A stretch of DNA of 10,802 nucleotides from a virus. Lineage: Duplodnaviria > Heunggongvirae > Uroviricota > Caudoviricetes. The stretch is from the IMG/VR virus record IMGVR_UViG_2698536392_000023, positions 1-10,802 of that record; one strand, 5' to 3'. The notes under the pieces were generated by a model that was given only the letters and a program-made list of their open reading frames with translations, did no database searches and was not told the origin of the DNA. The position numbers were made by a program, and so were the translations under genes. Numbering within the stretch: the stretch's first letter is position 1; each line of letters opens with the position of its first letter. Positions 1 to 10,802 of the stretch are shown piece by piece.

Positions 1-258
1 CAGAACCACAACAAAGTAATACTCCGGGGCTCTGGTGGCGCTGATTACTGTGCCTTCTCCACCTGTCGGCTTCACCACAACAGGTGTGCTCACATCACCT
101 TCTGCGACAATCGCCTGAATAAGTGCTGCGCCATCATCCGTATACGAAGAAAACGGCCCACCGTATGGTTGCCATCCTTCACGAATTTTTTGCGCAAGTG
201 CATCAGCAAGGTCTGACGGCGATGCCGCCCTGACCACATCGTAGTGTTTAAATGCCAT
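1..258 (-). CDS. 5' part of a CDS whose N-terminus is in the window (86 codons, continues past position 1); DUF1737-like N-terminus as recalled for prophage NanS-p/YjhS-type esterases
   Basis: ATG at 258-256 (minus) preceded by GGAGGA 5 nt upstream; reverse-complement translation MAFKHYDVVRAASPSDLADALAQKIREGWQPYGGPFSSYTDDGAALIQAIVAEGDVSTPVVVKPTGGEGTVISATRAPEYYFVVVL with no stop before the window edge. Absent from the ORF track, which holds only ORFs with a stop in the window; the track ORF 90..356 is a different frame. Family assignment is from memory. Confidence 0.6.
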   Translation of the reverse strand, partial: MAFKHYDVVRAASPSDLADALAQKIREGWQPYGGPFSSYTDDGAALIQAIVAEGDVSTPVVVKPTGGEGTVISATRAPEYYFVVVL

Positions 259-451
259 GAATCCTCCCGGCCGGGATAATATTGTGAGTAAAATGAGGAG
301 CGGGCTGAAATCCGGAAGTTACAGGACAATGGCAGAAGAGAGACAACAGCCCGCAATACGAAAAAGGCCGCGCTATTGCGCAGAGTGATTACTGTCGGAT
401 ATTATTCGCCAGCTGAAATATTACTTCACGTTTTGTTGTTTATTCCTTGCC

Positions 452-480
452 GCCCGCGTCTCCCTGCGCGGGCTTTTTTT
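452..480 (+). terminator. Rho-independent terminator-like hairpin (GCCCGCG-N8-CGCGGGC followed by T7), plus-strand orientation
   Basis: 7-bp GC-rich stem 452-458/467-473, 8-nt loop, T-run 474-480. Confidence 0.5.
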
Positions 481-491
481 GTCCATAAGAA

Positions 492-511
492 AGCCCCTCC
501 GGAGAGGGGCT
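492..511. other. 8-bp perfect inverted repeat AGCCCCTC-CGGA-GAGGGGCT; with the 452-480 hairpin forms a back-to-back hairpin pair
   Basis: Arms 492-499 and 504-511 are exact reverse complements; on the minus strand it is followed by TTCTTAT. Confidence 0.45.
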
Positions 512-707
512 GGAGAGTGGCGCTATGTGCCATTGCATGGTGCCGGGTGCCTCCCGGTGAATTCAGTACCAGCACCTGAATCCGCGATTATCCCATATAC
601 CTACTCGCTGATTGCCCCTCCGCACAGGGGGATTCACCATGCCAGTTTCTTTTAACAAACTCCCCGCAAACCAGACAACAGTCAACCGCCTGAATTGTGA
701 GACATTT

Positions 708-733
708 AAAAAAAAGGCCCGCAAAAGCGAGCC
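708..733 (-). terminator. Rho-independent terminator immediately after the tRNA cluster
   Basis: Minus-strand read GGCTCGC-TTTT-GCGGGCC followed by T8 (plus A-run 708-715); 7-bp stem with one G-U pair. Confidence 0.75.
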
Positions 734-747
734 AGGGAAAATAAGTG

Positions 748-824
748 TGGCGCGTTGTACTGGATTCGAACCAGTGACCGATTGCTTAGAAGGCAATTGC
801 TCTGTCCGGCTGAGCTAACAACGC
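748..824 (-). tRNA. tRNA-Arg, anticodon UCU (reads AGA)
   Basis: Reverse complement GCGTTGTTAGCTCAGCCGGACAGAGCAATTGCCTTCTAAGCAATCGGTCACTGGTTCGAATCCAGTACAACGCGCCA folds as a cloverleaf: perfect 7-bp acceptor stem, GCTC/GAGC D-stem, anticodon loop CTTCTAA, T-loop TTCGAAT, encoded CCA. Confidence 0.85.
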
Positions 825-837
825 ATGATGCATATAA

Positions 838-914
838 TGGACCGCCATCGGGGACTTGAACCCCGCGCAGCCAGCTTCGAAGGCTGGCGCTCTTTCCTGA
901 TGAGCTAATGGCGG
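838..914 (-). tRNA. tRNA-Arg, anticodon UCG (reads CGA)
   Basis: Reverse complement CCGCCATTAGCTCATCAGGAAAGAGCGCCAGCCTTCGAAGCTGGCTGCGCGGGGTTCAAGTCCCCGATGGCGGTCCA: 7-bp acceptor stem CCGCCAT/ATGGCGG, anticodon loop CTTCGAA, T-loop TTCAAGT, encoded CCA. The 5' nucleotide is C, which is unusual. Confidence 0.75.
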
Positions 915-921
915 TATGTGA

Positions 922-997
922 TGGTGGACCTTGCTGGATTTGAACCAGCGGCCTGGCGATTATGAGTCGCTCGCTCTCACCACTGAGCTAAAGGGCC
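922..997 (-). tRNA. ileZ: tRNA with anticodon CAU; body resembles the Ile2 (lysidine, ileX/ileZ-type) class rather than Met
   Basis: Reverse complement GGCCCTTTAGCTCAGTGGTGAGAGCGAGCGACTCATAATCGCCAGGCCGCTGGTTCAAATCCAGCAAGGTCCACCA; anticodon loop CTCATAA, T-loop TTCAAAT, encoded CCA. Acceptor position 3-70 is a C/T mismatch. Ile2 versus Met isotype is from recalled similarity and phage context. Confidence 0.75.
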
Positions 998-1032
998 GGG
1001 AGCAGAATAATAACGGTCCGTAATTAATTCCG

Positions 1033-1060
1033 CAATAAAAAACCCGCTCGGCGGCGGGTT
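1033..1060 (-). terminator. tR'-like intrinsic terminator downstream of the late promoter
   Basis: Minus-strand AACCCGC-CGCCGA-GCGGGTT followed by TTTTATT; sits about 45 nt downstream of the candidate -10. Confidence 0.65.
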
Positions 1061-1107
1061 GTAGAAACTCTTCTAATGTCAGGCATAAAAAGCCCATCGT
1101 TATGACG

Positions 1108-1135
1108 AATTTACCACAGATTCCGGAAAAATCAA
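1108..1135 (-). promoter_or_regulatory. pR'-like late promoter (Q-modified), sigma70-type
   Basis: Minus-strand TTGATT (plus 1130-1135), 16-nt spacer, TAAATT (plus 1108-1113), immediately downstream of the Q-like stop codon at 1141. Confidence 0.55.
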
Positions 1136-1140
1136 CCTTG

Positions 1141-1962
1141 TTACCTAGTTACCTTTTTTAACTGCCGCTCAGCCCATGCTTCTTCAATATCAAACCGGGT
1201 CACCAGCGCATCATAGAATTTCTTAACTGTTTTTTCCCATGACGCGCGTGTTATCTGGTTTGTCACCTCGCATATAGCATTAAATGCCTCCGTTGATGGT
1301 AGTCTTTTATAGCCACGACCACCACAACGCTGGCAGTCTCTGATAACAGGCATACCACGTTTTACCGACTCTTCACGGTAAAGGGCGACACCACGCCCAC
1401 GGCAATCCTTACAGGCGGTGTAAACCTCACCCTTTCCGCCACACTCCGGACAGGCAACTTTTACCACCTCCCTGACTTTTTTCCATTCTTCCCAGTAAGA
1501 CGGATACACACCTTTCGTACACTTTGCCCATACCGGCGGCTTACCATCCGGATACTGGACCTTGTTTGTAAAAACTACGCTTTCAATAAATTTTTCCCCA
1601 TAGCAACAAGGGCACTGCTTTTTACTCGCTGCGCTGCGGGCATAATCCTCAAAAGCGTACGAAGCCATAATGCGCATCACTAACGGTTTTATTTCTGCCG
1701 GAAGTTTTCTCAACGCCGCCACACGATCGCACCGACTGAGTGCATAATCTGCCAGTAATTCTGTTGCCCGCGCCCTGTCATTCATACTGATGCCCATTTT
1801 CCCCAGGAACGCAGAAAACCCCATCTCAGCCCGATTCTGTGTCATGCTCTGCGCGGCCATCACATCAGTGATACTCAGCGCATCTTTTGACGTTGAGGCC
1901 GATGCATCGGTCAGGCAAGGGGATTTTGGGGAGTAGTATTTCGGTAAATCTTCCAGTTTCAT
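1141..1962 (-). CDS. Q-like late antiterminator (273 aa) with three CxxCxGxG zinc-finger motifs
   Basis: Complete ORF; position directly upstream of the pR'/tR'/tRNA block and downstream of rusA; motifs CPECGGKG, CKDCRGRG, CQRCGGRG; start ATG overlaps the rusA stop (ATGA). Confidence 0.65.
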   Translation of the reverse strand: MKLEDLPKYYSPKSPCLTDASASTSKDALSITDVMAAQSMTQNRAEMGFSAFLGKMGISMNDRARATELLADYALSRCDRVAALRKLPAEIKPLVMRIMASYAFEDYARSAASKKQCPCCYGEKFIESVVFTNKVQYPDGKPPVWAKCTKGVYPSYWEEWKKVREVVKVACPECGGKGEVYTACKDCRGRGVALYREESVKRGMPVIRDCQRCGGRGYKRLPSTEAFNAICEVTNQITRASWEKTVKKFYDALVTRFDIEEAWAERQLKKVTR

Positions 1963-2333
1963 TTTTTGACCTGCCCTTCAAGCATTATGGGGTAAATCTT
2001 CACCCCCAGACGTCCACCAGATACTGGCTGAGCACGAACGATATTGATTTCATCAAACTGCTCATCGTCCATTAGCAACCCCGCATGCGTCAGCGCATCC
2101 AGCGGCGCTTTCAGAATATTGTCCAGGTCACGGCGGCGCTTATCCGGTGGCTCGGCAATAATCTTTATCGCCAGCCTTCCGGACAGGTTTAATTTCAGCC
2201 GCTGCTGGCGAACAATAAGTGCCACATCCCGGCGATAACGCTCACCGGCTTTTGATACAAAATATGTGCTGCCACGACGTCGCCAGTAGGTGTTCACCGT
2301 CGGCGGGTAAGGCAAAACAAACTCTATACGCAT
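1959..2333 (-). CDS. rusA: RusA-family Holliday junction resolvase (124 aa)
   Basis: Typical size; N-terminus LPYPPTVNTYWRR and the DKRRRDLDN acidic motif resemble RusA; SD AAGAGG 6 nt upstream of ATG at 2333. Confidence 0.85.
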   Translation of the reverse strand: MRIEFVLPYPPTVNTYWRRRGSTYFVSKAGERYRRDVALIVRQQRLKLNLSGRLAIKIIAEPPDKRRRDLDNILKAPLDALTHAGLLMDDEQFDEINIVRAQPVSGGRLGVKIYPIMLEGQVKK

Positions 2334-2345
2334 CAGTAACCTCTT

Positions 2346-2873
2346 TTACCCGAGCACGCCGGTTGCAAAGGCGTGATCAAGAAAACGAAAAATTAAATCA
2401 ACCTGGGAACCATGCTTTTCTTCGAACGCCAGTGGATCCGCATGAAGCTCGTTGTGATGCTCCCGACACAGCGGTAGCGTGAAAATATCGTGGGATTTTG
2501 TTCCCATTCCGCCCTGACCATGACCAATCAGATGATGAGGATCGTCCGCTGGCTTACCACAACACGCACACGGCTGTGTCTTTACCCAGCGTGTGTATTT
2601 CTCATTTACCCAGCGGCGACGTTTAGGTCGTTTCATGAAGGATTCCGGAGACTCCGGATCAACGGCAATGCTGACCACCGTCTTTTCCTGTGGTGGGTTC
2701 TGTTGCTGGTGGGTGTGAGGTGGTAGCGCAATATTTTTTGTGCGCTGCTTCAGTATGCTGGTGGCGGTCTGTTCTCCCGGTATGATGTCGCTTTCACGGT
2801 ATACGGAGCGGATTTTTTCCGCCGGTAATCCCAGAGAACAACGCGCTACTGCCTCAGGTAGTGCATCCACCAC
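2346..2873 (-). CDS. HNH-like zinc-finger protein, DUF968/YdfU-like C-terminal region (175 aa as drawn; start uncertain, may be the 3' part of a frameshifted longer gene)
   Basis: Motif CACCGKPADDPHHLIGHGQGGMGTKSHDIFTLPLCREHHNELH. ORF begins with GTG and has no recognisable SD; the same frame stays open upstream to 2954; 28-nt overlap with the upstream ORF. Confidence 0.55.
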   Translation of the reverse strand: MVDALPEAVARCSLGLPAEKIRSVYRESDIIPGEQTATSILKQRTKNIALPPHTHQQQNPPQEKTVVSIAVDPESPESFMKRPKRRRWVNEKYTRWVKTQPCACCGKPADDPHHLIGHGQGGMGTKSHDIFTLPLCREHHNELHADPLAFEEKHGSQVDLIFRFLDHAFATGVLG

Positions 2874-3448
2874 CTGATTGCAGGCCGCCCACAGGATAAT
2901 TCGGCCAGCGATAACTCCCTCTCCTGCGTGCCGCTTATTGCGTGACGGATGACGTCAATCATCCAGGCAACCAGATTCTGCTGAGCAAGTTGATCGAGTG
3001 ATTCTGATGTCTGGTCGCGCAGCTGGTTGTCACAGTGCCAGCACAACACCATCGCGCCGGTACCGTAACGGTGAATGACTGTTTCGCTGTGATGATAATC
3101 GCCGTGTGGCCACTGGCAGGATTTCACGTGACGTAATAACCAGTCAGACAGTGCACCAGCGCCGCCAGCTGCACGAATCACCCGCTCATCGCTGAAAAAT
3201 GGCAGCAGTGATTTATCTTCCGCCAGCGGCTGGCGAACAGTAGGAACCGCTCCAGATGGCAGCGCCCGCATGTTTTTCGGTTCCGGCTCCACCAGTATTC
3301 TGCCGTTATGGAATGCTGACATTGATTCACGGCCTGGCTTAACGATAACCAGACCGAGTTCCGGTACCAGAACAGGTCGAAGTAATACCCGCACATTACC
3401 TCCAGACGCGCTGACGGTAGCAGGCATGTGTCCGTGGCAGATGTGCAC
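2846..3448 (-). CDS. HNH-like motif protein (about 200 aa as drawn; start codon uncertain)
   Basis: Motif CQWPHGDYHHSETVIHRYGTGAMVLCWHCDNQL. ORF-track start is a GTG; first ATG is at 3427; overlaps neighbouring ORFs at both ends. Confidence 0.5.
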   Translation of the reverse strand: MHICHGHMPATVSASGGNVRVLLRPVLVPELGLVIVKPGRESMSAFHNGRILVEPEPKNMRALPSGAVPTVRQPLAEDKSLLPFFSDERVIRAAGGAGALSDWLLRHVKSCQWPHGDYHHSETVIHRYGTGAMVLCWHCDNQLRDQTSESLDQLAQQNLVAWMIDVIRHAISGTQERELSLAELSCGRPAIRWWMHYLRQ

Positions 3449-3668
3449 GAACAGGAAGATATACAGAAACGGTCCAGGTCAGACGATCAGCGTTCAGACT
3501 CCGCTCCACACGGACACCGCGACGCAGATACGCCTCTTGAGGCATATCTGCCTCATCGATCGTACAGAACAGATAGTGAAACCAGCCATACTGAGGCGCA
3601 CGAAAACGCCTCCCCTGCTTAATTTCCAGGTCGGCTTCAGAATTGTGGGATTTTATGTGTTGTGTCAT
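3396..3668 (-). CDS. Hypothetical protein, 90 aa
   Basis: ATG at 3668 with GGAGAA SD 6 nt upstream; the C-terminal 18 codons overlap the next ORF in another frame. Confidence 0.5.
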   Translation of the reverse strand: MTQHIKSHNSEADLEIKQGRRFRAPQYGWFHYLFCTIDEADMPQEAYLRRGVRVERSLNADRLTWTVSVYLPVRAHLPRTHACYRQRVWR

Positions 3669-3717
3669 CGGATTCTCCGGTGACAGCAGGTGTCAGTTGT
3701 TCAGGCTGACTGCGCGA

Positions 3718-3746
3718 ATTGTAAGGCAATACGCCGGAATGTACAA
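3718..3746 (-). promoter_or_regulatory. Candidate sigma70 promoter for the downstream accessory operon
   Basis: Minus-strand TTGTAC (plus 3741-3746), 17-nt spacer, TACAAT (plus 3718-3723). Confidence 0.4.
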
Positions 3747-3771
3747 ACAGAAAACCCGTCAGTAAGACGGG
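3745..3771 (-). terminator. Intrinsic terminator of the YgiW-like moron
   Basis: Minus-strand CCCGTC-TTACT-GACGGG followed by TTTTCTGTTT, beginning 19 nt after the stop codon at 3790. Confidence 0.7.
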
Positions 3772-3789
3772 CTTAACAAGCAGGGGCGG

Positions 3790-4134
3790 TTACTTTAATA
3801 ATTTCAGTGCCTTTACATCAACTTCAACACTGCTCAGGTCTTTATCAATTTCACCCTCAATTCTTACTTTGTCTTTCGGAGAAACATTCTGCCCGGCCCA
3901 TACGCTGTCATCGATATCCGTGACAATTGTCCCGCTATTATCACGAAACTCATAACGTTCATCACCCACTTTTTTAACGATGCTCCCTTCAAGGATAACC
4001 CATGCATCATCCTTCAGTTCTTTTGCCTGCGCTACTGTTGAACGCTCTGCTTCAGGCCCTTGGAAACCGCCCTGCTGTGCAAAAACGCCAAAAGACACAC
4101 CGGAAATAAGTGCTGCAATCAATACCTTTTTCAT
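3790..4134 (-). CDS. YgiW/YdeI (BOF, bacterial OB-fold) family secreted protein with signal peptide (114 aa); prophage moron
   Basis: N-terminal signal peptide MKKVLIAALISGVSFGVFA; family-typical motifs QGGFQGP, DDAWV, SGTI, VSPKDKV, DKD..SVE.DVK; SD AGAGGG upstream; own terminator. Confidence 0.8.
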   Translation of the reverse strand: MKKVLIAALISGVSFGVFAQQGGFQGPEAERSTVAQAKELKDDAWVILEGSIVKKVGDERYEFRDNSGTIVTDIDDSVWAGQNVSPKDKVRIEGEIDKDLSSVEVDVKALKLLK

Positions 4135-4253
4135 TCATAGCCCTCTTTCAGAGATGAACATTCAAACAGCATTTTCAGTATGATAAAGCGCGGGTGCGTT
4201 GAGGATGCCTGACACATCAGAGGTGGCGAGGGATTTCTCCCCCGCCAGGTCTC

Positions 4254-4409
4254 TTACTCCTCAGGTTCGTAAGCTGTGAAGACAGCGACCTCCGTCTGGC
4301 CGGTTCGGATTCGTACCTCGCAGAGGTCTTTCCTCGTTACCAGTGCCGTCACTATGACGGTAATACAGATGACGATCAGGGCGATTAACATCGCCTTTTG
4401 CTGCTTCAT
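4254..4409 (-). CDS. hokD: Hok/Gef-family type I toxin (51 aa), closest in my memory to HokD/RelF
   Basis: MKQQKAMLIALIVICITVIVTALVTRKDLCEVRIRTGQTEVAVFTAYEPEE; SD AAGGAG upstream of ATG at 4409. The ORF-track entry 4254..4466 is the same frame extended to an upstream ATG. Confidence 0.85.
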   Translation of the reverse strand: MKQQKAMLIALIVICITVIVTALVTRKDLCEVRIRTGQTEVAVFTAYEPEE

Positions 4410-4422
4410 AGCCTGCTTCTCC

Positions 4423-4451
4423 TTGCCTTTCGGCGCGTAAGAGGCTAACCT
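4423..4451 (+). promoter_or_regulatory. Candidate promoter for a sok-like antisense RNA
   Basis: Plus-strand TTGCCT (4423-4428), 17-nt spacer, TAACCT (4446-4451); predicted transcript runs antisense across the upstream in-frame ATG (4466) and its GAGG SD. Confidence 0.35.
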
Positions 4452-4584
4452 ACATGTGTCTAGCATGAAATTGGCCTCAGATTAATGTTAGGCGTCTTGC
4501 AGGACGCGTAATGTTAACTGGGGCTTTTCTCTGTCTGCCTTACGGTGGCATGCCCGAGGCAGACAGCCTCAAGCACCCGCAGCA

Positions 4585-4612
4585 ATTCTACTTAACTCTC
4601 GCTTTACCGCAA
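4585..4612 (-). promoter_or_regulatory. Candidate promoter of the hok mRNA
   Basis: Minus-strand TTGCGG (plus 4607-4612), 16-nt spacer, TAGAAT (plus 4585-4590); gives a leader of about 170 nt, typical for hok mRNAs. Confidence 0.4.
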
Positions 4613-4624
4613 ACCGTTTTTACC

Positions 4625-4646
4625 CGATATGGGAATTCCCATATCG
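4625..4646. repeat. 22-bp perfect palindrome CGATATGGGAATTCCCATATCG
   Basis: Exact reverse-complement symmetry; lies between the stop of the 34-aa ORF (4655) and the candidate hok -35. Confidence 0.9.
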
Positions 4647-4654
4647 TAATGAAT

Positions 4655-4759
4655 TCAGTTCCCTAGTCGATCCATCAAAAACACAACCAGGCAGTAAACG
4701 CCCACAACAGCAATAACAGCCAGCGCACCTTCCATTGCCAGTGAAATATCATCCGACAT
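4655..4759 (-). CDS. Small hydrophobic protein, 34 aa (MSDDISLAMEGALAVIAVVGVYCLVVFLMDRLGN), predicted single transmembrane helix
   Basis: ATG at 4759 with strong SD AAAGGAGGG 4-5 nt upstream; absent from the ORF track because it is under 60 aa. Confidence 0.5.
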   Translation of the reverse strand: MSDDISLAMEGALAVIAVVGVYCLVVFLMDRLGN

Positions 4760-4794
4760 ATTCCCTCCTTTGGTGTTAATCCCGGCGAACGTTT

Positions 4795-4878
4795 TTACCC
4801 CCACCGACAAATAACATATACTAAAAAATCAATAGCTATAGCAACGCCTGTAATTGCAAAGGCTTCAGGCCAGATCAT
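4795..4878 (-). CDS. Small hydrophobic protein, 27 aa (MIWPEAFAITGVAIAIDFLVYVICRWG)
   Basis: ATG at 4878 overlaps the stop of the DUF551 ORF (ATGA); SD GGAGG 8-12 nt upstream. Confidence 0.45.
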   Translation of the reverse strand: MIWPEAFAITGVAIAIDFLVYVICRWG

Positions 4879-5460
4879 TGGCGCACCTCCTGCGGCGGTT
4901 CTGGTAGCGGCATCCAGTCGGTTACATTGCGGCTCTGTGTTTCGAAAAATTCATCACCATTACGGACTACATCAAAAAACTCACCGTCTCGATATTGCGC
5001 ATAAAGAACGAATGCGCCATCACATAAAATAATTACGTGCTGACCATCATCCGGCATTCGCTCACTACAGCTTATCCAATCATCCAGAGTTACCGGATAG
5101 TTGGTTGACGTTTCCGAGATTTCCCGAAAATTATTGGTTGACGAACCCTTTTTTTTCCCGAAAGTTTCCAGCCTGAAGCATGGCGGCGCTGTCTGGCGGG
5201 GCAGCATATAGCGGCACGTATATTTCCGGTTCCTTATCAGCACCGGGTTGCTCTTCCAGTGAGAATGTCTTTCCGGTAAATCGATTCATATAAAGCACGG
5301 GCTCTGCTTCCAGCGAAGCCTGAGCAACAAGGGCCAGTGCTAAATCCAACTCAATTGCCTCGAGAGAATTTTTGAATGCTGTCTGTTTTACTGCAAATTT
5401 CATCGCCTTTACATTTTCACTAACATGACTGATTAACTGCTCTTTTGTAAAAGTGGTCAT
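4875..5460 (-). pseudogene. DUF551-domain phage protein split into two frames at an A8 (plus-strand T8) tract
   Basis: Frame A 5460..5131 (ATG at 5460, SD AAGGAG) ends ...REKKGFVNQ; frame B 5243..4875 reads ...FGKKKGSS... and carries the DUF551-like C-terminus (DDWISCSERMPDDG...WMPLPEPP). The frames switch at the T8 run 5149-5156. Confidence 0.6.
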
Positions 5461-5516
5461 CTCATTCTCCTTTGATGCGAATGCCAGCGACAATTGAAGC
5501 CTGATAGCTAATTCAC

Positions 5517-5912
5517 TCACAATACCGCCTCCTGAAAATTGCCCTGATAGAACGCCAGTACACGCAGCATAACTTCACTCTTCCGGCACTCGCCACAGAT
5601 TATGTTCTGTTGTCTGTCGTAGCGGCGTATTTCTCCGTCTGGTAACTTTCGAATCAATGTCTGGTCGGTTGTTTTCTCCGCTGCCTTACGCCATACGCGA
5701 TACACCTGTTCTGATGTAAAAACACCGTATTTACCGGGCATGTATAAATCGCCGCAAGCCAGTACATCCACAAGGCAACGTCTGACTGAATGCCAGCCTG
5801 CTCCCGTCGCTCTCTCCAGTTGTGATATCGTCATGCGTTCATTTTTGCGTACCAGCCCGATAATTCGGGCCTTCAGTTCTTCACGCTGTTCGTGTGTAAA
5901 AGGTTTCGCCAT
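5517..5912 (-). CDS. Hypothetical phage protein, 131 aa, possible winged-helix fold
   Basis: ATG at 5912 with GGAGG SD 7 nt upstream; segment TISQLERATGAGWHSVRRCL looks HTH-like. Confidence 0.6.
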   Translation of the reverse strand: MAKPFTHEQREELKARIIGLVRKNERMTISQLERATGAGWHSVRRCLVDVLACGDLYMPGKYGVFTSEQVYRVWRKAAEKTTDQTLIRKLPDGEIRRYDRQQNIICGECRKSEVMLRVLAFYQGNFQEAVL

Positions 5913-5927
5913 AAGCGCCTCCGGCTA

Positions 5928-6653
5928 TCACTTTTCCGACACAATACGACCGGATGAATCGACAATCTGCCGAACAATATCCCAGTGCTTGTTCAGATCC
6001 CGCAGCGCGGCGCAGACTCGCTCCCACTTCTGAACCTGACCTTTTGCTCGGCGCAGCTCGCGGTTAGCCACATGCAGCGATGGTAGAATCAGGTCATCTG
6101 CTTTCGTTTCAGTGAACGATTGCTGCAACTTCACAATGTCCTCCACCGCTTCTGTTTTAATTTCTTCCTGTGCAGCCGTTTCCTGGACTGGTAACGCAAC
6201 ACCTGCTGGCTGAGGAAGGGCTTTACCCTCCGTTTCAGCTACGGATGCAGCTTTCTGCTCTGCCGGTAAATCAACGCCCGGTATGCAGTAACGAAATTTA
6301 CCATCCTGATTCACGCGAATCAGACGCCCTTTGCTGATTGCCATTGCCAGCGATGAATTCGCACGGCGGGAGGTAATTCCGAACATCAATGCCAGCTCAT
6401 CCGCCGTTTGTGGGCCATGATGTTCAATCGCCTCAGTCAGCATTTGCGCTGTCACTTTCGGTACCGGTGACACTGGTTCACTTTCACCAGTCTGAGTCAG
6501 CCACCACATCGACCCCTTGTTATCCGCTTCACCACGGCGCTTCAGTTTCCACAGTTCGTTGACAGCATCTTCGCGGCTGATTCCAAGGCGCGATGCCACT
6601 ACCTGTGAAGAGGCTTTTTTCAGTGCTTTCAGTGCGTCAAATACAGTTTCCAT
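5928..6653 (-). CDS. Phage protein with two tandem winged-helix-like domains and a C-terminal coiled-coil (241 aa), possibly DUF1627-like
   Basis: ATG at 6653 with GGAGGA SD; internal repeat of HTH-like segments ([22 protein letters not shown] and [26 protein letters not shown]). The ORF-track start at 6671 is a TTG. Confidence 0.65.
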
Positions 6654-6674
6654 TAAAACGTCCTCCAACAAAAA

Positions 6675-7421
6675 TTACTTCACAACCCTCTGATTGCTGA
6701 CATTTGGACGCCAGCTATCCCAGTTAAACGTCACCCATCGACCACCGCTCATGGTCATCCGGTCCATAATCCTCTCACCAAGAAGCGTGCTCATTGCGGC
6801 ATGATTCAGGTTTGTTAACATCCCGACACTGCACAGTGATGCTGTCCGGCGATCAATTATCTGGTGTAATACCACCTGCTCGTTTTTCGTCTCCCGCTGA
6901 ACGCCTATTTCATCCAGGACCAGCAAATCAACCCCGCAAAGCTCCTGTAAAAATTTTTCCCCGGATTTGCCGTTGTCGTAGCTGTCATGCAACACGCTCA
7001 TGACATCAGACACGGTGACGATAATCACGCTGCGCCCCTTCGCCATCAGCCGGTTACCCATCGCCGCTGCAAGGTGATTTTTCCCGGTGCCGGTTTTACC
7101 GCTGAACACAAAATTCGTGCACCCGGTCATCAGTTCGTCAGCTATGGATTTGGCCTGGCTCAGCGCGTATTTTTGCCCGTCGTTCTGCACCTGATAATTC
7201 GCAAACGAGCATTTGCTGTGCAGAGGCTGGATGCCCGAACGATTCAGGATTTTTTCCACCCGCAACTGGCGATTCTGGCGGTTAATCTCCTCGCTGCGTT
7301 TTCGTCCTTCAGCAAGTTGCCATTCCCGCCACTCCTCCACCGTCCGGTACGGTGGAACCGCCCCCTGTGGTGCAAGTCTGCGAATACGTTCAAGAACCCC
7401 AACTGCCGCAATGTTTTTCAT
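6675..7421 (-). CDS. DnaC-like replicative helicase loader (AAA+), 248 aa
   Basis: Walker A GKTGTGKNHLAAA, Walker B LLVLDEIG, and colinearity with E. coli DnaC (MKN..., NRSGI.PLH..CSF.NY); SD AGGGGGTGA upstream. Confidence 0.85.
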   Translation of the reverse strand: MKNIAAVGVLERIRRLAPQGAVPPYRTVEEWREWQLAEGRKRSEEINRQNRQLRVEKILNRSGIQPLHSKCSFANYQVQNDGQKYALSQAKSIADELMTGCTNFVFSGKTGTGKNHLAAAMGNRLMAKGRSVIIVTVSDVMSVLHDSYDNGKSGEKFLQELCGVDLLVLDEIGVQRETKNEQVVLHQIIDRRTASLCSVGMLTNLNHAAMSTLLGERIMDRMTMSGGRWVTFNWDSWRPNVSNQRVVK

Positions 7422-7427
7422 GACACG

Positions 7428-8498
7428 TCACCCCCTGAATCCCGGCGGTATTTCAGTGTCCGGTTCAGAAATGTGATTCACGCAACGCTGGTTGTTCGTG
7501 CCGCTTACCGGGAGCAACCAGGGGTTTTCAAAATTCCGGTCCGGCCCAAAAAACGTCGTCGCTCGCTGAACAAATTCCGTTCCCGCTTTCCCGGTCGCCG
7601 CCAGGTATCTCGCGTAACGCCTCACACCATCCAGCATGGTCTCTGGTGGCACCCCCTCGCGCAATCTGGCCTTCCAGGCACTGAATGCGGATTTCTTCGG
7701 GTTTGCTCCGGCACGCAACGGGTACTCCCGCCAGACCTGTTCGAACACATCCGGATAATCCACTCGTCCCACAGACTGCCCGGTGTTTTCCGGGACTACC
7801 CGATCGGCTTCCCGCTGAATGGCGGAATCGGCTTCGGGCTGCTGCAGTTGGTGTGATTGCTCCGGCCTTGCGGTCATCACCTGCTGCACAGCGCCCGAAT
7901 CGGCTTTCAGCGCATACGCTGAATCGGCTTCCGGTGTCGTGCCTACTGGCTGACCAGGATTGACGGTCTGAACATCCCCTGCCTGGTTCGTGGCGTTTTT
8001 TACGCCATGGACCATAGTGTTTTGATCTTCTTGATCTGTATCTTTATCTGTATCTTTATCTGTCGTGACTCGTCGTGACATGTGCGTGACATTTCGTGAC
8101 GCGCCGTGACAATCGCCATTTTGTTCCCGCTTTCTTTCCCTCTCTCGCTGCGCCCTCTTGCGCTCTGCAGGAGATTTTGCGGTTTGCGAAATATTGCCGT
8201 TGTCCTCTTTAAGCACCTGGCGTTTTTCCCATCCAGTGATTAAATCACCATCAAGTACCCGCCCCTGCATCGTCTGCAAAATTGAATCAATTACCTCTTC
8301 TGTCACGTCGAGCGCACTTGCCAAATCTTCTGTCGTGACATCAATGTGACCTCGCGTGACATTTCGTGACGCGCTCACCAGGAGGTGGATATACACTGCC
8401 ATCACTGTTGCAATTGGCTGCCCTGACACCCTGGCAATTGTTCGCCACTTAGGGTCATTTGGCATGTCATGCCATAATCTGAGCCAGGCGTTAGCCAT
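7428..8498 (-). CDS. O-like replication initiator (replisome organiser) carrying internal origin iterons, about 356 aa
   Basis: Sits upstream of the DnaC-like gene; iteron arrays lie inside the coding sequence as in lambda O. Probable start is ATG at 8498 with SD AGAGGTGA; the ORF track starts two codons earlier at a GTG. Confidence 0.7.
   Translation of the reverse strand: MANAWLRLWHDMPNDPKWRTIARVSGQPIATVMAVYIHLLVSASRNVTRGHIDVTTEDLASALDVTEEVIDSILQTMQGRVLDGDLITGWEKRQVLKEDNGNISQTAKSPAERKRAQRERERKREQNGDCHGASRNVTHMSRRVTTDKDTDKDTDQEDQNTMVHGVKNATNQAGDVQTVNPGQPVGTTPEADSAYALKADSGAVQQVMTARPEQSHQLQQPEADSAIQREADRVVPENTGQSVGRVDYPDVFEQVWREYPLRAGANPKKSAFSAWKARLREGVPPETMLDGVRRYARYLAATGKAGTEFVQRATTFFGPDRNFENPWLLPVSGTNNQRCVNHISEPDTEIPPGFRG
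8034..8063. repeat. Tandem 12-bp repeat (ATCTGTATCTTT x2.5) encoding a TDKD repeat in the initiator
   Basis: Exact copies at 8034-8045 and 8046-8057, partial at 8058-8063; moderately AT-rich, adjacent to iteron array A. Confidence 0.85.
8064..8110. repeat. Iteron array A: five CGTGAC repeats at 10/11/10/10-bp spacing (candidate replication origin)
   Basis: CGTGAC at 8064, 8074, 8085, 8095, 8105; helical-turn periodicity. Confidence 0.8.
8334..8374. repeat. Iteron array B: four (C)GTGAC repeats at 10-11 bp spacing; includes a 21-bp exact copy of part of array A
   Basis: Repeats at 8334, 8345, 8355, 8365; GCGTGACATTTCGTGACGCGC occurs at both 8084-8104 and 8354-8374. Confidence 0.8.
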
Positions 8499-8569
8499 AC
8501 TCACCTCTTCTGATACCGAATCTTTTTACTCACGAGTTGCCGGAAGCGATTCGATATGGCTATTATCAC

Positions 8570-8995
8570 TCAATGCACTGCCACAGCATTTCCTGCCGGG
8601 CCACCACGGTTCATCTGATTGAAACCGGCGATTGCCACCGCGACAAAATCATCAGCGTCTCTCACCAGTCGCTCCCGCGTCTCCACCAGCTCCCGAAAAT
8701 AAGCTGAACTGTGGCTGCGCATTCTGGCCACCAGCAAAGGTGGCATTGCCTTTTCGATCGCTGGTAACAACGCCTGAATTTTTTCAACTGCATCAGGGGT
8801 GTCTTTCTCTACCCAGCGGAAAATTTTCTGGGTATTGCGAGCCAGGGCTTCCGGATGGCTGTCGTCATACAGTTCCGGGAACGTCATACCCAACTCAAAA
8901 TAAGCCTGGGTTATTCCAGCTGCTGGAACTTTCTCACCATCAGGATATGCCCAGGCATTCATCGCCATGCGGATGTGCTCATGTTTGATTTTCAT
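8570..8995 (-). CDS. ydaT: YdaT-like protein (cII position; family reported as toxic in Rac prophage), 141 aa
   Basis: Size and position downstream of the Cro-like gene match Rac ydaT; N-terminus MKIKHEHI; SD AGAGG upstream; 17-nt overlap with the ydaS-like gene. Family call is from memory. Confidence 0.55.
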   Translation of the reverse strand: MKIKHEHIRMAMNAWAYPDGEKVPAAGITQAYFELGMTFPELYDDSHPEALARNTQKIFRWVEKDTPDAVEKIQALLPAIEKAMPPLLVARMRSHSSAYFRELVETRERLVRDADDFVAVAIAGFNQMNRGGPAGNAVAVH

Positions 8996-9302
8996 GAATC
9001 ATTTGCCTCTTGATGCTTCGGGTATGATCGTTTTCGTCATTTGGTTGCTTCATCGACATATTCTGCGAATAACATGACGAGCGTCGTAAGTATGTCCAAT
9101 CAACATCAGGACGAAGTTCTTCACACAGGACACCACCTTTTGTTGCTCGTTCAATCGCAGGACATCTCTCAGCAGGCAACTGACGTACACCTTTGATCCA
9201 TTGATTTACGCTTGGAGGAGATACACCTAAAAGCCTAGCCATTGCTGATTGCCCACCGACAACAGCACAAGCTCGTTTGAATGAATAGTTATCTTTTTTC
9301 AT
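8979..9302 (-). CDS. ydaS: YdaS-like Cro-type HTH protein, about 107 aa
   Basis: HTH segment QSAMARLLGVSPPSVNQWIKG; ATG at 9302 with GGAG SD (the ORF track begins at an upstream GTG, 9323); divergent from the repressor across an operator region. Confidence 0.65.
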   Translation of the reverse strand: MKKDNYSFKRACAVVGGQSAMARLLGVSPPSVNQWIKGVRQLPAERCPAIERATKGGVLCEELRPDVDWTYLRRSSCYSQNMSMKQPNDENDHTRSIKRQMIHENQT

Positions 9303-9329
9303 CGAATGAACTCCAAAAAACACACAATA

Positions 9330-9359
9330 ATATTAGGCTTAGCCTAATGTGATTATCAA
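9330..9359 (-). promoter_or_regulatory. PR-like promoter for the ydaS-ydaT-replication operon
   Basis: Minus-strand TTGATA (plus 9354-9359), 18-nt spacer, TAATAT (plus 9330-9335); spacer contains operator O1. Confidence 0.45.
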
Positions 9360-9398
9360 TAGGCTATGCCTAACGCTTCGAGAGTAGGGATTGCCTAA
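9333..9398. promoter_or_regulatory. OR-like operator cluster: three TTAGGC-N3-GCCTAA palindromes spaced 25-26 bp centre to centre
   Basis: O1 TTAGGCTTAGCCTAA 9333-9347 (perfect); O2 ATAGGCTATGCCTAA 9359-9373; O3 TAGGGATTGCCTAA 9385-9398 (one half-site imperfect). Confidence 0.7.
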
Positions 9399-9426
9399 CG
9401 CGATGCGCATAGGAGACTATTAAGCA

Positions 9427-9903
9427 ATGCTTAGTGGTAAAGACTTAGGCCGAGCGATAGAGCAGGCCATTAACAAAAAAATTGCATCAGGAGCCGTCAA
9501 ATCAAAGGCGGAAATCGCACGTCATTTCAAAGTCCAACCACCATCAATCCATGACTGGATTAAGAAAGGTTCGATAAGTAAAGACAAACTTCCAGAACTA
9601 TGGCGTTTCTTTTCTGATGTGGTTGGTCCAGAGCATTGGGGGCTTAACGAATACCCCATACCAACCCCATCCACTTCAGATACAAAAAGTGAACTTTTAG
9701 ACATAAACAGCCTTTATCAAGCCGCCTCTGATGAAAAAAGAGCAATTGTGGCTTTCCTCTTATCTGGAAATGCTACGGAGCCTAGTTGGGTTGATCATGA
9801 CGTTCGCGCCTACATTGCCGCAATGGAAATGAAGGTAGCTAACTATCTGAAAAATCAAGAATCAAAACGGAAAAGCCAGAACATCACCAAGACAGGAACT
9901 TAA
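9427..9903 (+). CDS. racR: RacR-like prophage repressor (cI-position HTH protein), 158 aa
   Basis: Divergent from the Cro-like gene across operators; HTH segment SKAEIARHFKVQPPSIHDWIKKG; AGGAG SD; size matches RacR. Family call is from memory. Confidence 0.65.
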   Translation: MLSGKDLGRAIEQAINKKIASGAVKSKAEIARHFKVQPPSIHDWIKKGSISKDKLPELWRFFSDVVGPEHWGLNEYPIPTPSTSDTKSELLDINSLYQAASDEKRAIVAFLLSGNATEPSWVDHDVRAYIAAMEMKVANYLKNQESKRKSQNITKTGT

Positions 9904-9997
9904 ACTTATATGGTCCGACGGGAAATTCCTAGTTCCCGTTAGTTAACTCCTACTACCTCTCCCACAAACCATCACCTATTAGGTCGCACCCAAACCA

Positions 9998-10036
9998 TTA
10001 GGCATAGCCTACTGACAAGCAATTAGGCATTTCCTA
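9998..10036. promoter_or_regulatory. OL-like operators: two further TTAGGC-N3-(G/T)CCTA palindromes downstream of the repressor gene
   Basis: TTAGGCATAGCCTA 9998-10011 and TTAGGCATTTCCTA 10023-10036; centres 25 bp apart. Confidence 0.6.
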
Positions 10037-10040
10037 TAGT
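10012..10040 (+). promoter_or_regulatory. PL-like sigma70 promoter overlapping the OL operators
   Basis: CTGACA (10012-10017), 17-nt spacer, TATAGT (10035-10040). Confidence 0.5.
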
Positions 10041-10244
10041 TTTCCCATACCAACCCATCCCGTCCCACACAATACAGGGCAATACCTAGAGTTACCCGGC
10101 AGTGGTCAGGGATTAAGTAGCCAGCCCGAGGCGTATGAACATGACGGCGGGAACACTTTGTATAACAGCGCAGCAGGTTTTTAGTTCCGCTACCCCAGCG
10201 TTAAGGGGAAATGAGGTCAGCATGGATACTATCGAGCTCCGATC

Positions 10245-10802
10245 CCTAAAGTAACCAGAGCCAGGCTCACCATGGAAGACTGGAAAAAAATTTACAATGC
10301 AACGCCTGAAAAACACTTTATCCGTAACGCAATGCTTCTTGCGATTGTTACTGGTCAGCGCCGTGATGACATTTGCCATATGCGTTTTTCAGATGTGTGG
10401 AACGAACACCTGCATATTACCCAGGGAAAAACTGGAATGCGTCTGGCGTTACCGCTGACGCTACGCTGTGATGCCATTGGGATATCGCTAAAAGAAGTGA
10501 TTGATGGATGCAGGGACAGAATATTGAGTCCATACCTGATTCATAGTCGGCACCAAAAACAACCAAAACCAATGAGTAAAGACAACCTGAGCGATTACTT
10601 TGCCAAAGCGCGGGAGCTGGCTGGAATAATTCCACCAGCAGGAAAAACTCCGCCAACATTTCATGAACAACGTTCTCTATCAGAACGGCTGTACCGTGCA
10701 CAGGGTATCGATACAAAAACATTACTGGGACATAAAGTCCAGGCAACCACCGATCGTTATAACGATACTCGTGGTCAGGAATGGGTTAAATTGGTTGTTT
10801 GA
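10245..10802 (+). pseudogene. Lambda-type tyrosine integrase, C-terminal catalytic domain only (N-terminal about 175 aa missing)
   Basis: Colinear with the lambda Int C-terminus (TGQRR, HEQRSLSERLY, LLGHK, DRYNDTRGQEW, stop at 10802); in-frame stop at 10212-10214 and no Int-like sequence upstream in any frame. Confidence 0.8.

Follow-up and report, generated by a model that had tools for sequence, protein, structure and literature searches.

A ygiW gene for a predicted exported BOF-family protein within a mobile hok/sok cassette of Escherichia coli prophages

Canonical hok/sok toxin-antitoxin (TA) loci, such as parB of plasmid R1 and the prophage modules of hokD type that have no ygiW gene, consist of a promoter, a tac element, overlapping mok and hok reading frames, the antisense RNA sok, and a fold-back inhibition (fbi) element, and they end right after fbi. 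The full-length hok mRNA is locked by the pairing of the 5' tac with the 3' fbi and is translatable only after a slow maturation of its 3' end (PMC9841398, from which the definition of fbi is also taken). We analyzed a stretch of 10,802 nucleotides of viral DNA, hereafter the window (positions 1 to 10,802 of the IMG/VR record IMGVR_UViG_2698536392_000023, Caudoviricetes), in which the same elements and the same predicted 5'-3' closure are present, whereas a 345-nt open reading frame (ORF), the gene ygiW, stands between fbi and the terminator. A sequence-only reading of this window had described ygiW as a self-contained moron encoding a secreted YgiW/BOF-family protein and as likely lysogenic-conversion cargo. 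Our analysis indicates that the moving unit is the hok/sok module together with ygiW, and the explanation that we consider reasonably probable is a hok-linked, exported YgiW that would be expressed by read-through from hok and would benefit the lysogen under envelope stress.

The gene itself is already known. It has been annotated since the genome of the Shiga toxin (Stx) phage 933W (L0136, 1999), whose record describes L0136 as "similar to hypothetical YgiW and YdeI proteins" and adjoining mokW/hokW/sokW; it is in RefSeq, and many Stx-phage records name it "protein ygiW precursor." The 933W product, which is also found in VT2-Sakai (Sp5) and other Stx phages, is the same protein (2 amino acid differences, 98% identity) carried on the same 880-bp cassette (~95% nucleotide identity). 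In 933W, however, the cassette is found near attR, past the tail-fibre genes, and is read against the direction of the late genes, whereas in the window it occupies the nin region of a lambdoid prophage of Rac immunity type at potCD and is co-oriented with the early genes. Our literature search did not find a description of the nested position of ygiW in the hok unit or of the constant association of ygiW with hok in all three genomic contexts, nor a paper testing a prophage copy of ygiW. The functional study of hokW-sokW (PMC8621323) and a census of Hok loci (bioRxiv 10.1101/2025.08.07.668861) make no mention of an exported-protein gene between fbi and the terminator.

Among the chromosomal relatives, the periplasmic Salmonella protein VisP (YgiW) binds to peptidoglycan, acts as an inhibitor of the lipid A hydroxylase LpxO, and aids resistance to polymyxin and to intramacrophage stress, and YdeI (OmdA), a periplasmic member of the same BOF superfamily, interacts with OmpD and protects from antimicrobial peptides (PMC5636140). 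The protein of the window resembles chromosomal YgiW (PDB 1NNX) and VisP in its predicted BOF OB-fold, its predicted signal peptide, and its conserved core residues but differs from them in length (114 versus 127 to 134 aa, a linker of ~15 residues after the signal peptide being missing) and in the position of its gene, which is away from qseBC. The lambda morons bor and lom are likewise small accessory genes that occupy variable slots in prophages of this type.

The hok/sok-ygiW cassette and its genomic contexts

When the window was aligned to the L0136-hokW-sokW region of 933W, the ~95% identity broke abruptly at window positions 3743 and 4622, that is, at the end of the terminator T-tract and ~10 nt upstream of the putative hok -35 element. 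Between these ends, the cassette carries in order the hok promoter, mok/hok/sok, ygiW, and a terminator, while the interval delimited by the sequence-only reading (3745-4134) covers the ygiW ORF and the downstream terminator. We collected 52 loci from IMG/VR and assemblies, 51 of which include the upstream sequence, and in all 51 informative loci the hok module ends 50 to 53 nt upstream of the ygiW start, whether the locus has a nin-type downstream flank (36 loci), a 933W-type flank (11 loci), or a chromosomal location (4 loci). The linkage of ygiW to hok is obligate across these three contexts. At the scale of the species, the ygiW coding sequence (CDS) is present at an identity of at least 95% in 548 of the 5,426 complete E. 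coli genomes (~10%), at 649 places, and the E. coli records with ygiW (551) are matched in number by those with at least 80% of the 880-bp cassette (553). Modules of hok without ygiW are far commoner, with ~4,700 genomes matching. Among the matches listed, ygiW carriers are almost all Shiga toxin-producing E. coli (STEC) of serogroups O157, O26, O103, O111, O121, and O145, and carriers thus appear to be mostly STEC. In the GTDB species representatives, the matches listed comprise only distant chromosomal orthologues with 44 to 51% identity (Rahnella, Ewingella, and others).

In the chromosomal context, the cassette is flanked by a cytochrome c peroxidase gene on one side and by mrp-metG on the other, phage genes being absent from the vicinity, and its ygiW allele (locus L009) is 82% identical to that of the window at the protein level. 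A search for the corresponding empty site in complete E. coli genomes gave none among the matches listed, which comprised only the cassette itself at ~87%. For most records, the best match was in a 60 to 80% band, which we took to represent the flanks although no flank match was listed. The flanks therefore appear weakly similar to complete E. coli genomes, and the host of the chromosomal cassette, labelled E. coli in TPA assemblies, may not be a typical E. coli. The Hok protein of this locus (2728-2883) has Gly for Cys in the motif KDLCEV, giving KDLGEV, a change that may inactivate the toxin; ygiW is intact there.

The junction between the two halves of the cassette is sharp. Homology of hok-only modules to the window begins at 4186, and ygiW-specific sequence starts ~5 nt past fbi. 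In prophages without ygiW, an intrinsic terminator (AACCCGCTTCGGCGGGTT+TTGTTTTT) lies directly 3' of the hok fbi, whereas in ygiW cassettes the 51-nt leader and ygiW take the place of this terminator and the sole terminator is 3' of ygiW. The transcript of the window cassette would hence not end right after fbi as canonical hok transcripts do, the next terminator past fbi (4190) being that at 3774-3752. Neither the window allele nor an allele ~84% identical to it at the nucleotide level contains a terminator in the 119-nt spacer between hok and ygiW, and a scan limited to consensus sigma-70 sites found no sigma-70-like sense promoter in the spacer of either of these two alleles. With no terminator between the two genes, hok transcripts would run into ygiW unless stopped otherwise.

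Comparison with prophages lacking the insert showed that ygiW is polymorphic for presence or absence: in the prophages of PCN033 and CREC-629, the neighbours hok, a 90-aa ORF, and DUF968 are present and ygiW is absent. In the Qin-like prophage of TO217, the hok terminator is retained and is followed by the separate gene rem (locus L004, 1975-2226). Cargo at the slot between hok and the 90-aa ORF/DUF968 varies, with rem in TO217 and nothing in PCN033 and CREC-629. Like ygiW, rem is a small accessory gene between hok and DUF968, but it occupies a neighbouring slot as a separate unit past an intact hok terminator, whereas ygiW is upstream of the only terminator. The post-ygiW and hok-only terminators are similar (A.AAACA.AAAACCCG...CGGG.TTAA) and may have a common origin, but terminators are too short and stereotyped for a demonstration of homology.

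Morons in the sense of Hendrix are recognized by their presence or absence among collinear phages, by their own terminator, and by a promoter of their own that works independently in the repressed prophage. The first two features apply to ygiW, and for the third, no promoter of its own was found by the consensus scan of two alleles. On the basis of the linkage, the cassette ends, and the missing terminator and promoter in the spacer, the moron is a transcription-unit-sized one made of hok/sok plus ygiW (3743-4622), with ygiW as its distal gene. Much of the sequence-only reading is borne out by our results, namely, the protein family, the export signal (as judged below), the Shine-Dalgarno (SD) sequence, the terminator, the position, and the presence/absence pattern, whereas its description of ygiW as self-contained has to be given up. 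Neither of the two outcomes named beforehand as refuting that reading, a missing family match or a missing predicted signal peptide, was obtained.

The opposite proposal is that ygiW is an autonomous moron with a promoter of its own, inserted downstream of hok with replacement or deletion of the hok terminator and regulated independently, e.g., by an envelope-stress regulator. The gene does have its own SD and terminator, and the slot beside hok takes other cargo, such as rem in Qin-like prophages. Moreover, chromosomal members of the family are under two-component systems (QseBC; VC1638/39 in Vibrio; PMC5636140), so that an activator-dependent promoter missed by a consensus scan is plausible. 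Divergent alleles also carry the sequence TGTTAATTT in the 4135-4200 part of the spacer, a possible extended -10 element that the window allele lacks (TGTTCATCT). Nevertheless, when 4135-4200 was inspected by eye, no PhoP- or PmrA-type box and no -10/-35 element, this candidate -10 included, was convincing or kept between alleles, and neither of the two scanned alleles has a sense promoter-like site. Two further observations stand against an autonomous ygiW: it was not found apart from hok in any of the three contexts, at synonymous divergence (dS) of up to 0.6, and hok transcripts must enter it unless another mechanism stops them, while rem, by contrast, follows a retained hok terminator. We consider independent transcription from a promoter of its own a serious but rather unlikely alternative to expression by read-through from hok.

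The spacer also has a promoter-like site antisense to hok and ygiW (TGAACA-18-TATGAT, window 4155-4184, plus strand), and it is kept in the ~84% identical allele (TTAACA-18-CATGAT, L009 2981-2952). It would start an RNA at ~4191, opposite the hok fbi; one or two such hits (~1-2) are expected per region by chance.

The YgiW protein: family, export signal, and constraint

The assignment of the product to the BOF (DUF388) family, made earlier from the letters alone, was confirmed by profile searches. The protein scores over the curated cutoffs of Pfam BOF PF04076 (114.7 bits, cutoff 25.8 bits, E 2.3e-33; the match takes in positions 10-102 of the 103 in the profile), of NCBIfam NF033674 "NirD/YgiW/YdeI stress tolerance" (E 4e-40, 136.4 bits against 35), and, barely, of NCBIfam TIGR00156 (111.9 bits against 108.15), and by these models it belongs to the BOF/YgiW-YdeI family. 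E. coli YgiW (PDB 1NNX) is its sole solved relative by sequence (phmmer E 3.6e-29, residues 18-111), and the family-invariant residues are kept in an alignment with chromosomal YgiW proteins; an OB-fold core like that of the solved structure is predicted from this likeness. The product is WP_032206337.1 in the RefSeq annotation of a genome 100% identical to the window and matches phrog_1230, a PHROGs family without assigned function, over its full length. Two closer identities were rejected. The YdeI equivalog model NF007471 (NCBIfam) gives 64.5 bits against a cutoff of 179, far too low for an orthologue of YdeI, and orthology with the qseBC-linked chromosomal YgiW was discarded given an identity of 50 to 60% and neighbours that are hok and prophage genes.

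The N-terminus has the organization of a Sec signal peptide, which we judged by rule-based, hand-made criteria rather than by SignalP. It comprises an n-region MKK, a 14-residue hydrophobic core with a mean Kyte-Doolittle hydropathy of 2.4, and a site V-F-A|QQ that fits the -3/-1 rule, with cleavage predicted after A19. The n-, h-, and c-regions expected of a secreted protein are present by these criteria. There is no Cys in the N-terminus and no lipobox, which rules out a lipoprotein. After the predicted cleavage, the protein would begin with QQGGFQGP, which lines up with the EQGGFSGP at the start of the 1NNX chain. Mature YgiW would thus be an acidic protein of 95 aa and ~10.5 kDa exported to the periplasm.

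The local expression signals also agree with the earlier description of the gene. The AAGAGG at the SD of ygiW is kept in 4 of 4 aligned alleles. The terminator hairpin, G+C-rich and with 9 pairs, lies 15 nt past the ygiW stop and, besides being the terminator attributed to ygiW, is the only one of the cassette and therefore also serves as the sole terminator of the hok unit; L007 and L009, two divergent alleles, have the same CCCGTC/GACGGG stem 3' of ygiW. As had been stated, ygiW lies between hok (4254-4409), which is upstream, and nin-like genes (the 90-aa ORF, DUF968, RusA, and Q), which are downstream. The features of the cassette are collected in Table 1.

Table 1. Features of the hok/sok-ygiW cassette in window coordinates
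Feature	Position	Strand	Remark
Whole mobile hok/sok-ygiW cassette, 880 bp	3743-4622	-	Unit common to different genomic contexts
Putative hok promoter: -35 TTGCGG (4607-4612), 16-nt spacer, -10 TAGAAT (4585-4590)	4585-4612	-	Placed by eye
hok mRNA 5' end/tac element GCGGGUGCUUGAGG	4568-4581	-	Pairs with fbi; exact 5' end inferred
sok antisense RNA	4458-4528	+	Transferred from the 933W misc_RNA sokW via alignment
mok (70 aa), overlapping hok	4254-4466	-	
hok toxin CDS (51 aa)	4254-4409	-	
hok fbi element CCUCAACGCACCCGC	4190-4204	-	Pairs with tac
ygiW-specific leader, 51 nt	4135-4185	-	From end of hok mRNA body to ygiW start
Shine-Dalgarno GAGGG	4141-4145	-	6 nt before ygiW ATG; read from sequence
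ygiW CDS, 114-aa YgiW/BOF-family OB-fold protein	3790-4134	-	ATG-to-TAA ORF, stop codon included
ygiW product, full sequence MKKVLIAALISGVSFGVFAQQGGFQGPEAERSTVAQAKELKDDAWVILEGSIVKKVGDERYEFRDNSGTIVTDIDDSVWAGQNVSPKDKVRIEGEIDKDLSSVEVDVKALKLLK	114 codons	-	Translation
Predicted Sec signal peptide MKKVLIAALISGVSFGVFA	4078-4134	-	Codons 1-19, cleavage before QQGGF; hand-made criteria
Intrinsic terminator, hairpin AAGCCCGTC-TTACT-GACGGGTTT then T-tract TCTGTTTGT	3752-3774	-	T-tract reaching ~3743

The gene is under purifying selection. Pairwise comparison of seven ygiW alleles by the Nei-Gojobori method gave ratios of nonsynonymous to synonymous divergence (dN/dS) of 0.11 to 0.25 in every pair with synonymous differences, with dS up to 0.60, and none of the alleles examined has lost the signal peptide, the reading frame, or any family-invariant residue. 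These ratios and intact alleles argue against ygiW being a decaying passenger. They also bear on the idea that ygiW is a neutral hitch-hiker without a function of its own, kept by its physical lock to the addictive hok/sok. Such a gene would show the perfect linkage to a TA module that we observed and would agree with the lack of any reported phenotype in the literature we found, but constraint of this order between alleles at dS of 0.33 to 0.60, together with the preserved frame, signal peptide, and invariant residues, makes it extremely improbable. In the surrounding prophage, RefSeq annotates DUF968 (ydfU-like; 2346-3448, minus strand), DUF551 (4875-5520, minus strand), and the integrase gene (locus L001, 15934-16503) as frameshifted or partial, and because these three genes have decayed, the prophage itself is decaying or defective, whereas hok and ygiW are intact. 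An intact and constrained ygiW in a decayed prophage fits cargo of benefit to the host.

The two halves of the cassette differ in synonymous divergence, with dS of 0.33 to 0.60 for ygiW versus 0.01 to 0.10 for hok; at the level of identity, the hok half of the window is ~92 to 93% identical to most ygiW-bearing loci and ygiW 98%. The low dS of hok suggests either that RNA structure constrains almost all positions of the gene or that recombination has taken place within the cassette.

Expression and proposed role of the cassette

By its sequence, the hok half of the cassette has the parts of a hok/sok locus, with a hok ORF and overlapping mok, a sok region, and a predicted tac-fbi pairing. The toxin gene matches Pfam HOK_GEF PF01848 (E 2.4e-23) and PHROG 251 "MokW-like host killing" and is hokD in RefSeq; the Rfam RF01794 "sok" model matches 4404-4578 with 117 bits. 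The putative hok promoter escapes the sigma-70 scan, its -35 having only 3 of 6 matches, and lies where expected with respect to the predicted start of the hok mRNA. In the predicted minimum-free-energy fold of 4186-4582 (minus strand), tac (4568-4581) pairs with fbi (4190-4204), with a z score of -7.8 versus shuffled sequences. When the fold was predicted for the 838-nt hok-ygiW RNA (4582-3745), the hok domain stayed closed, ygiW formed a separate domain, and the terminal hairpin formed. By these predictions, the hok fold can accommodate the ygiW insertion.

We propose a model in which read-through of the weak, constitutive hok transcript would give a mok/hok-ygiW mRNA of ~830 nt, from which ygiW would be translated by means of its own SD. 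In the nin-region context, early rightward phage transcription on induction would add to this expression. Once exported, the OB-fold protein would improve the tolerance of the lysogen to envelope stress, by analogy with chromosomal YgiW/VisP and YdeI/OmdA, while the linked hok/sok module would help to hold the cassette in place. Co-transcription with hok, periplasmic location, and a physiological role are what we infer from the arrangement of the genes and from their relatives; by extrapolation from the chromosomal paralogues, the lysogenic-conversion cargo proposed in the sequence-only reading could be tied to envelope stress or virulence.

Several points weigh against this model. The export signal was recognized by hand-made rules only. 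E. coli is without LpxO (PMC5636140), so that the best-defined mechanism of VisP is not transferable. Prophage YgiW is without the ~15-residue linker of its chromosomal orthologues and is 50 to 60% identical to them, and its partners may therefore differ. On the RNA side, the 3' extension of ~440 nt might disturb the 3'-end maturation that activates the hok mRNA; nonetheless, hokW-sokW of Sp5, which is the same cassette, behaves as a working type I TA (PMC8621323). That study makes no statement on ygiW in its constructs and describes three hokW RNAs, one of full length and two shorter, without giving their sizes. The possible extended -10 of the divergent alleles described above belongs here as well, and a weak or activator-dependent ygiW promoter, if present in 4135-4200, could have escaped a scan confined to consensus sigma-70 sites.

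A role for YgiW in the service of the phage itself was also considered, either as a periplasmic superinfection exclusion factor, in which binding to a porin or to peptidoglycan would block the entry of competitor DNA, or as an aid to Hok-assisted lysis and release. Its relatives bind such partners (OmpD for YdeI/OmdA and peptidoglycan for VisP; PMC5636140), the adjacent hokW-sokW promotes lysis and doubles the release of Sp5 after mitomycin C (PMC8621323), and ygiW is here co-oriented with early phage transcription. On the other hand, PADLOC defence models gave no match for YgiW, as was also the case for Mok/Hok, the 90-aa ORF, and a 34-aa ORF upstream of hok; the PHROG family of YgiW has no function assigned, and the cassette is also kept at a site of the chromosome outside any prophage and in a prophage that has decayed, where a role in phage release would be useless. 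Such a role is highly unlikely in our view.

If hok and ygiW are co-transcribed as our model assumes, published hokW-sokW deletions and constructs may have altered ygiW expression too, and the 3'-processing model of hok activation needs checking for this variant. An unlikely extension would make ygiW a functional third part of the hok/sok variant rather than a passenger: as a 3' cistron of the hok mRNA, with a product whose synthesis would depend on hok transcription and report it, it would retune the maturation that arms Hok, and periplasmic YgiW may modulate the membrane damage caused by Hok or the integrity of the envelope. Maturation of the 3' end would then have to pass through the ygiW message first, shifting the timing of post-segregational or induction-triggered killing.

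This extension, if true, would explain an association reported in an Irish case-control genome-wide association study of hemolytic uremic syndrome (PMC11950266), in which the accessory genes ygiW_2 and group_5720 (mokC-like) were associated only jointly (adjusted odds ratio 5.5). The "dependency or synergy" of the two was left unexplained, and the co-hits included ydfU and ybcQ variants and stx2B. In the single 880-bp cassette found in Stx2 phages of 933W type, ygiW and mok lie side by side, and the co-hits are neighbours on the same prophages. The signal most probably marks Stx2a-phage content rather than a virulence interaction between two genes.

Host prophage and neighbouring genes

The region of the window matches the chromosome of E. 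coli strain 90-3040 at 100% identity and three other STEC isolates of the Centers for Disease Control and Prevention at 99.9 to 100%. In 90-3040, it belongs to a lambdoid prophage that has immunity of the racR/ydaS/ydaT type and is integrated next to potCD. The replication module through Q, together with hok and ygiW, is entirely on the minus strand of the window.

Two small ORFs flank the cassette. Between ygiW and DUF968, the conserved 90-aa ORF (3396-3668, minus strand) belongs to phrog_1212, to which no function is assigned, and is present in all nin-type contexts with or without ygiW; it has no Pfam or NCBIfam match. Directly upstream of the hok promoter, a hydrophobic ORF of 34 aa (MSDDISLAMEGALAVIAVVGVYCLVVFLMDRLGN, 4655-4759, minus strand; RefSeq WP_001278450.1) gave no Pfam, PHROG, or PADLOC match. 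In the nin context and at the chromosomal locus L009, it goes with hok-ygiW, but 933W lacks it.

In the matching genome, the interval from Q to the lysis genes contains no stx genes. Downstream of Q, the window carries an Rfam STnc100 small RNA (138 bits; 481-671, minus strand) and three tRNA genes (751-997, minus strand; Ile, Arg, and Arg in RefSeq), a layout past Q that is typical of Stx phages.

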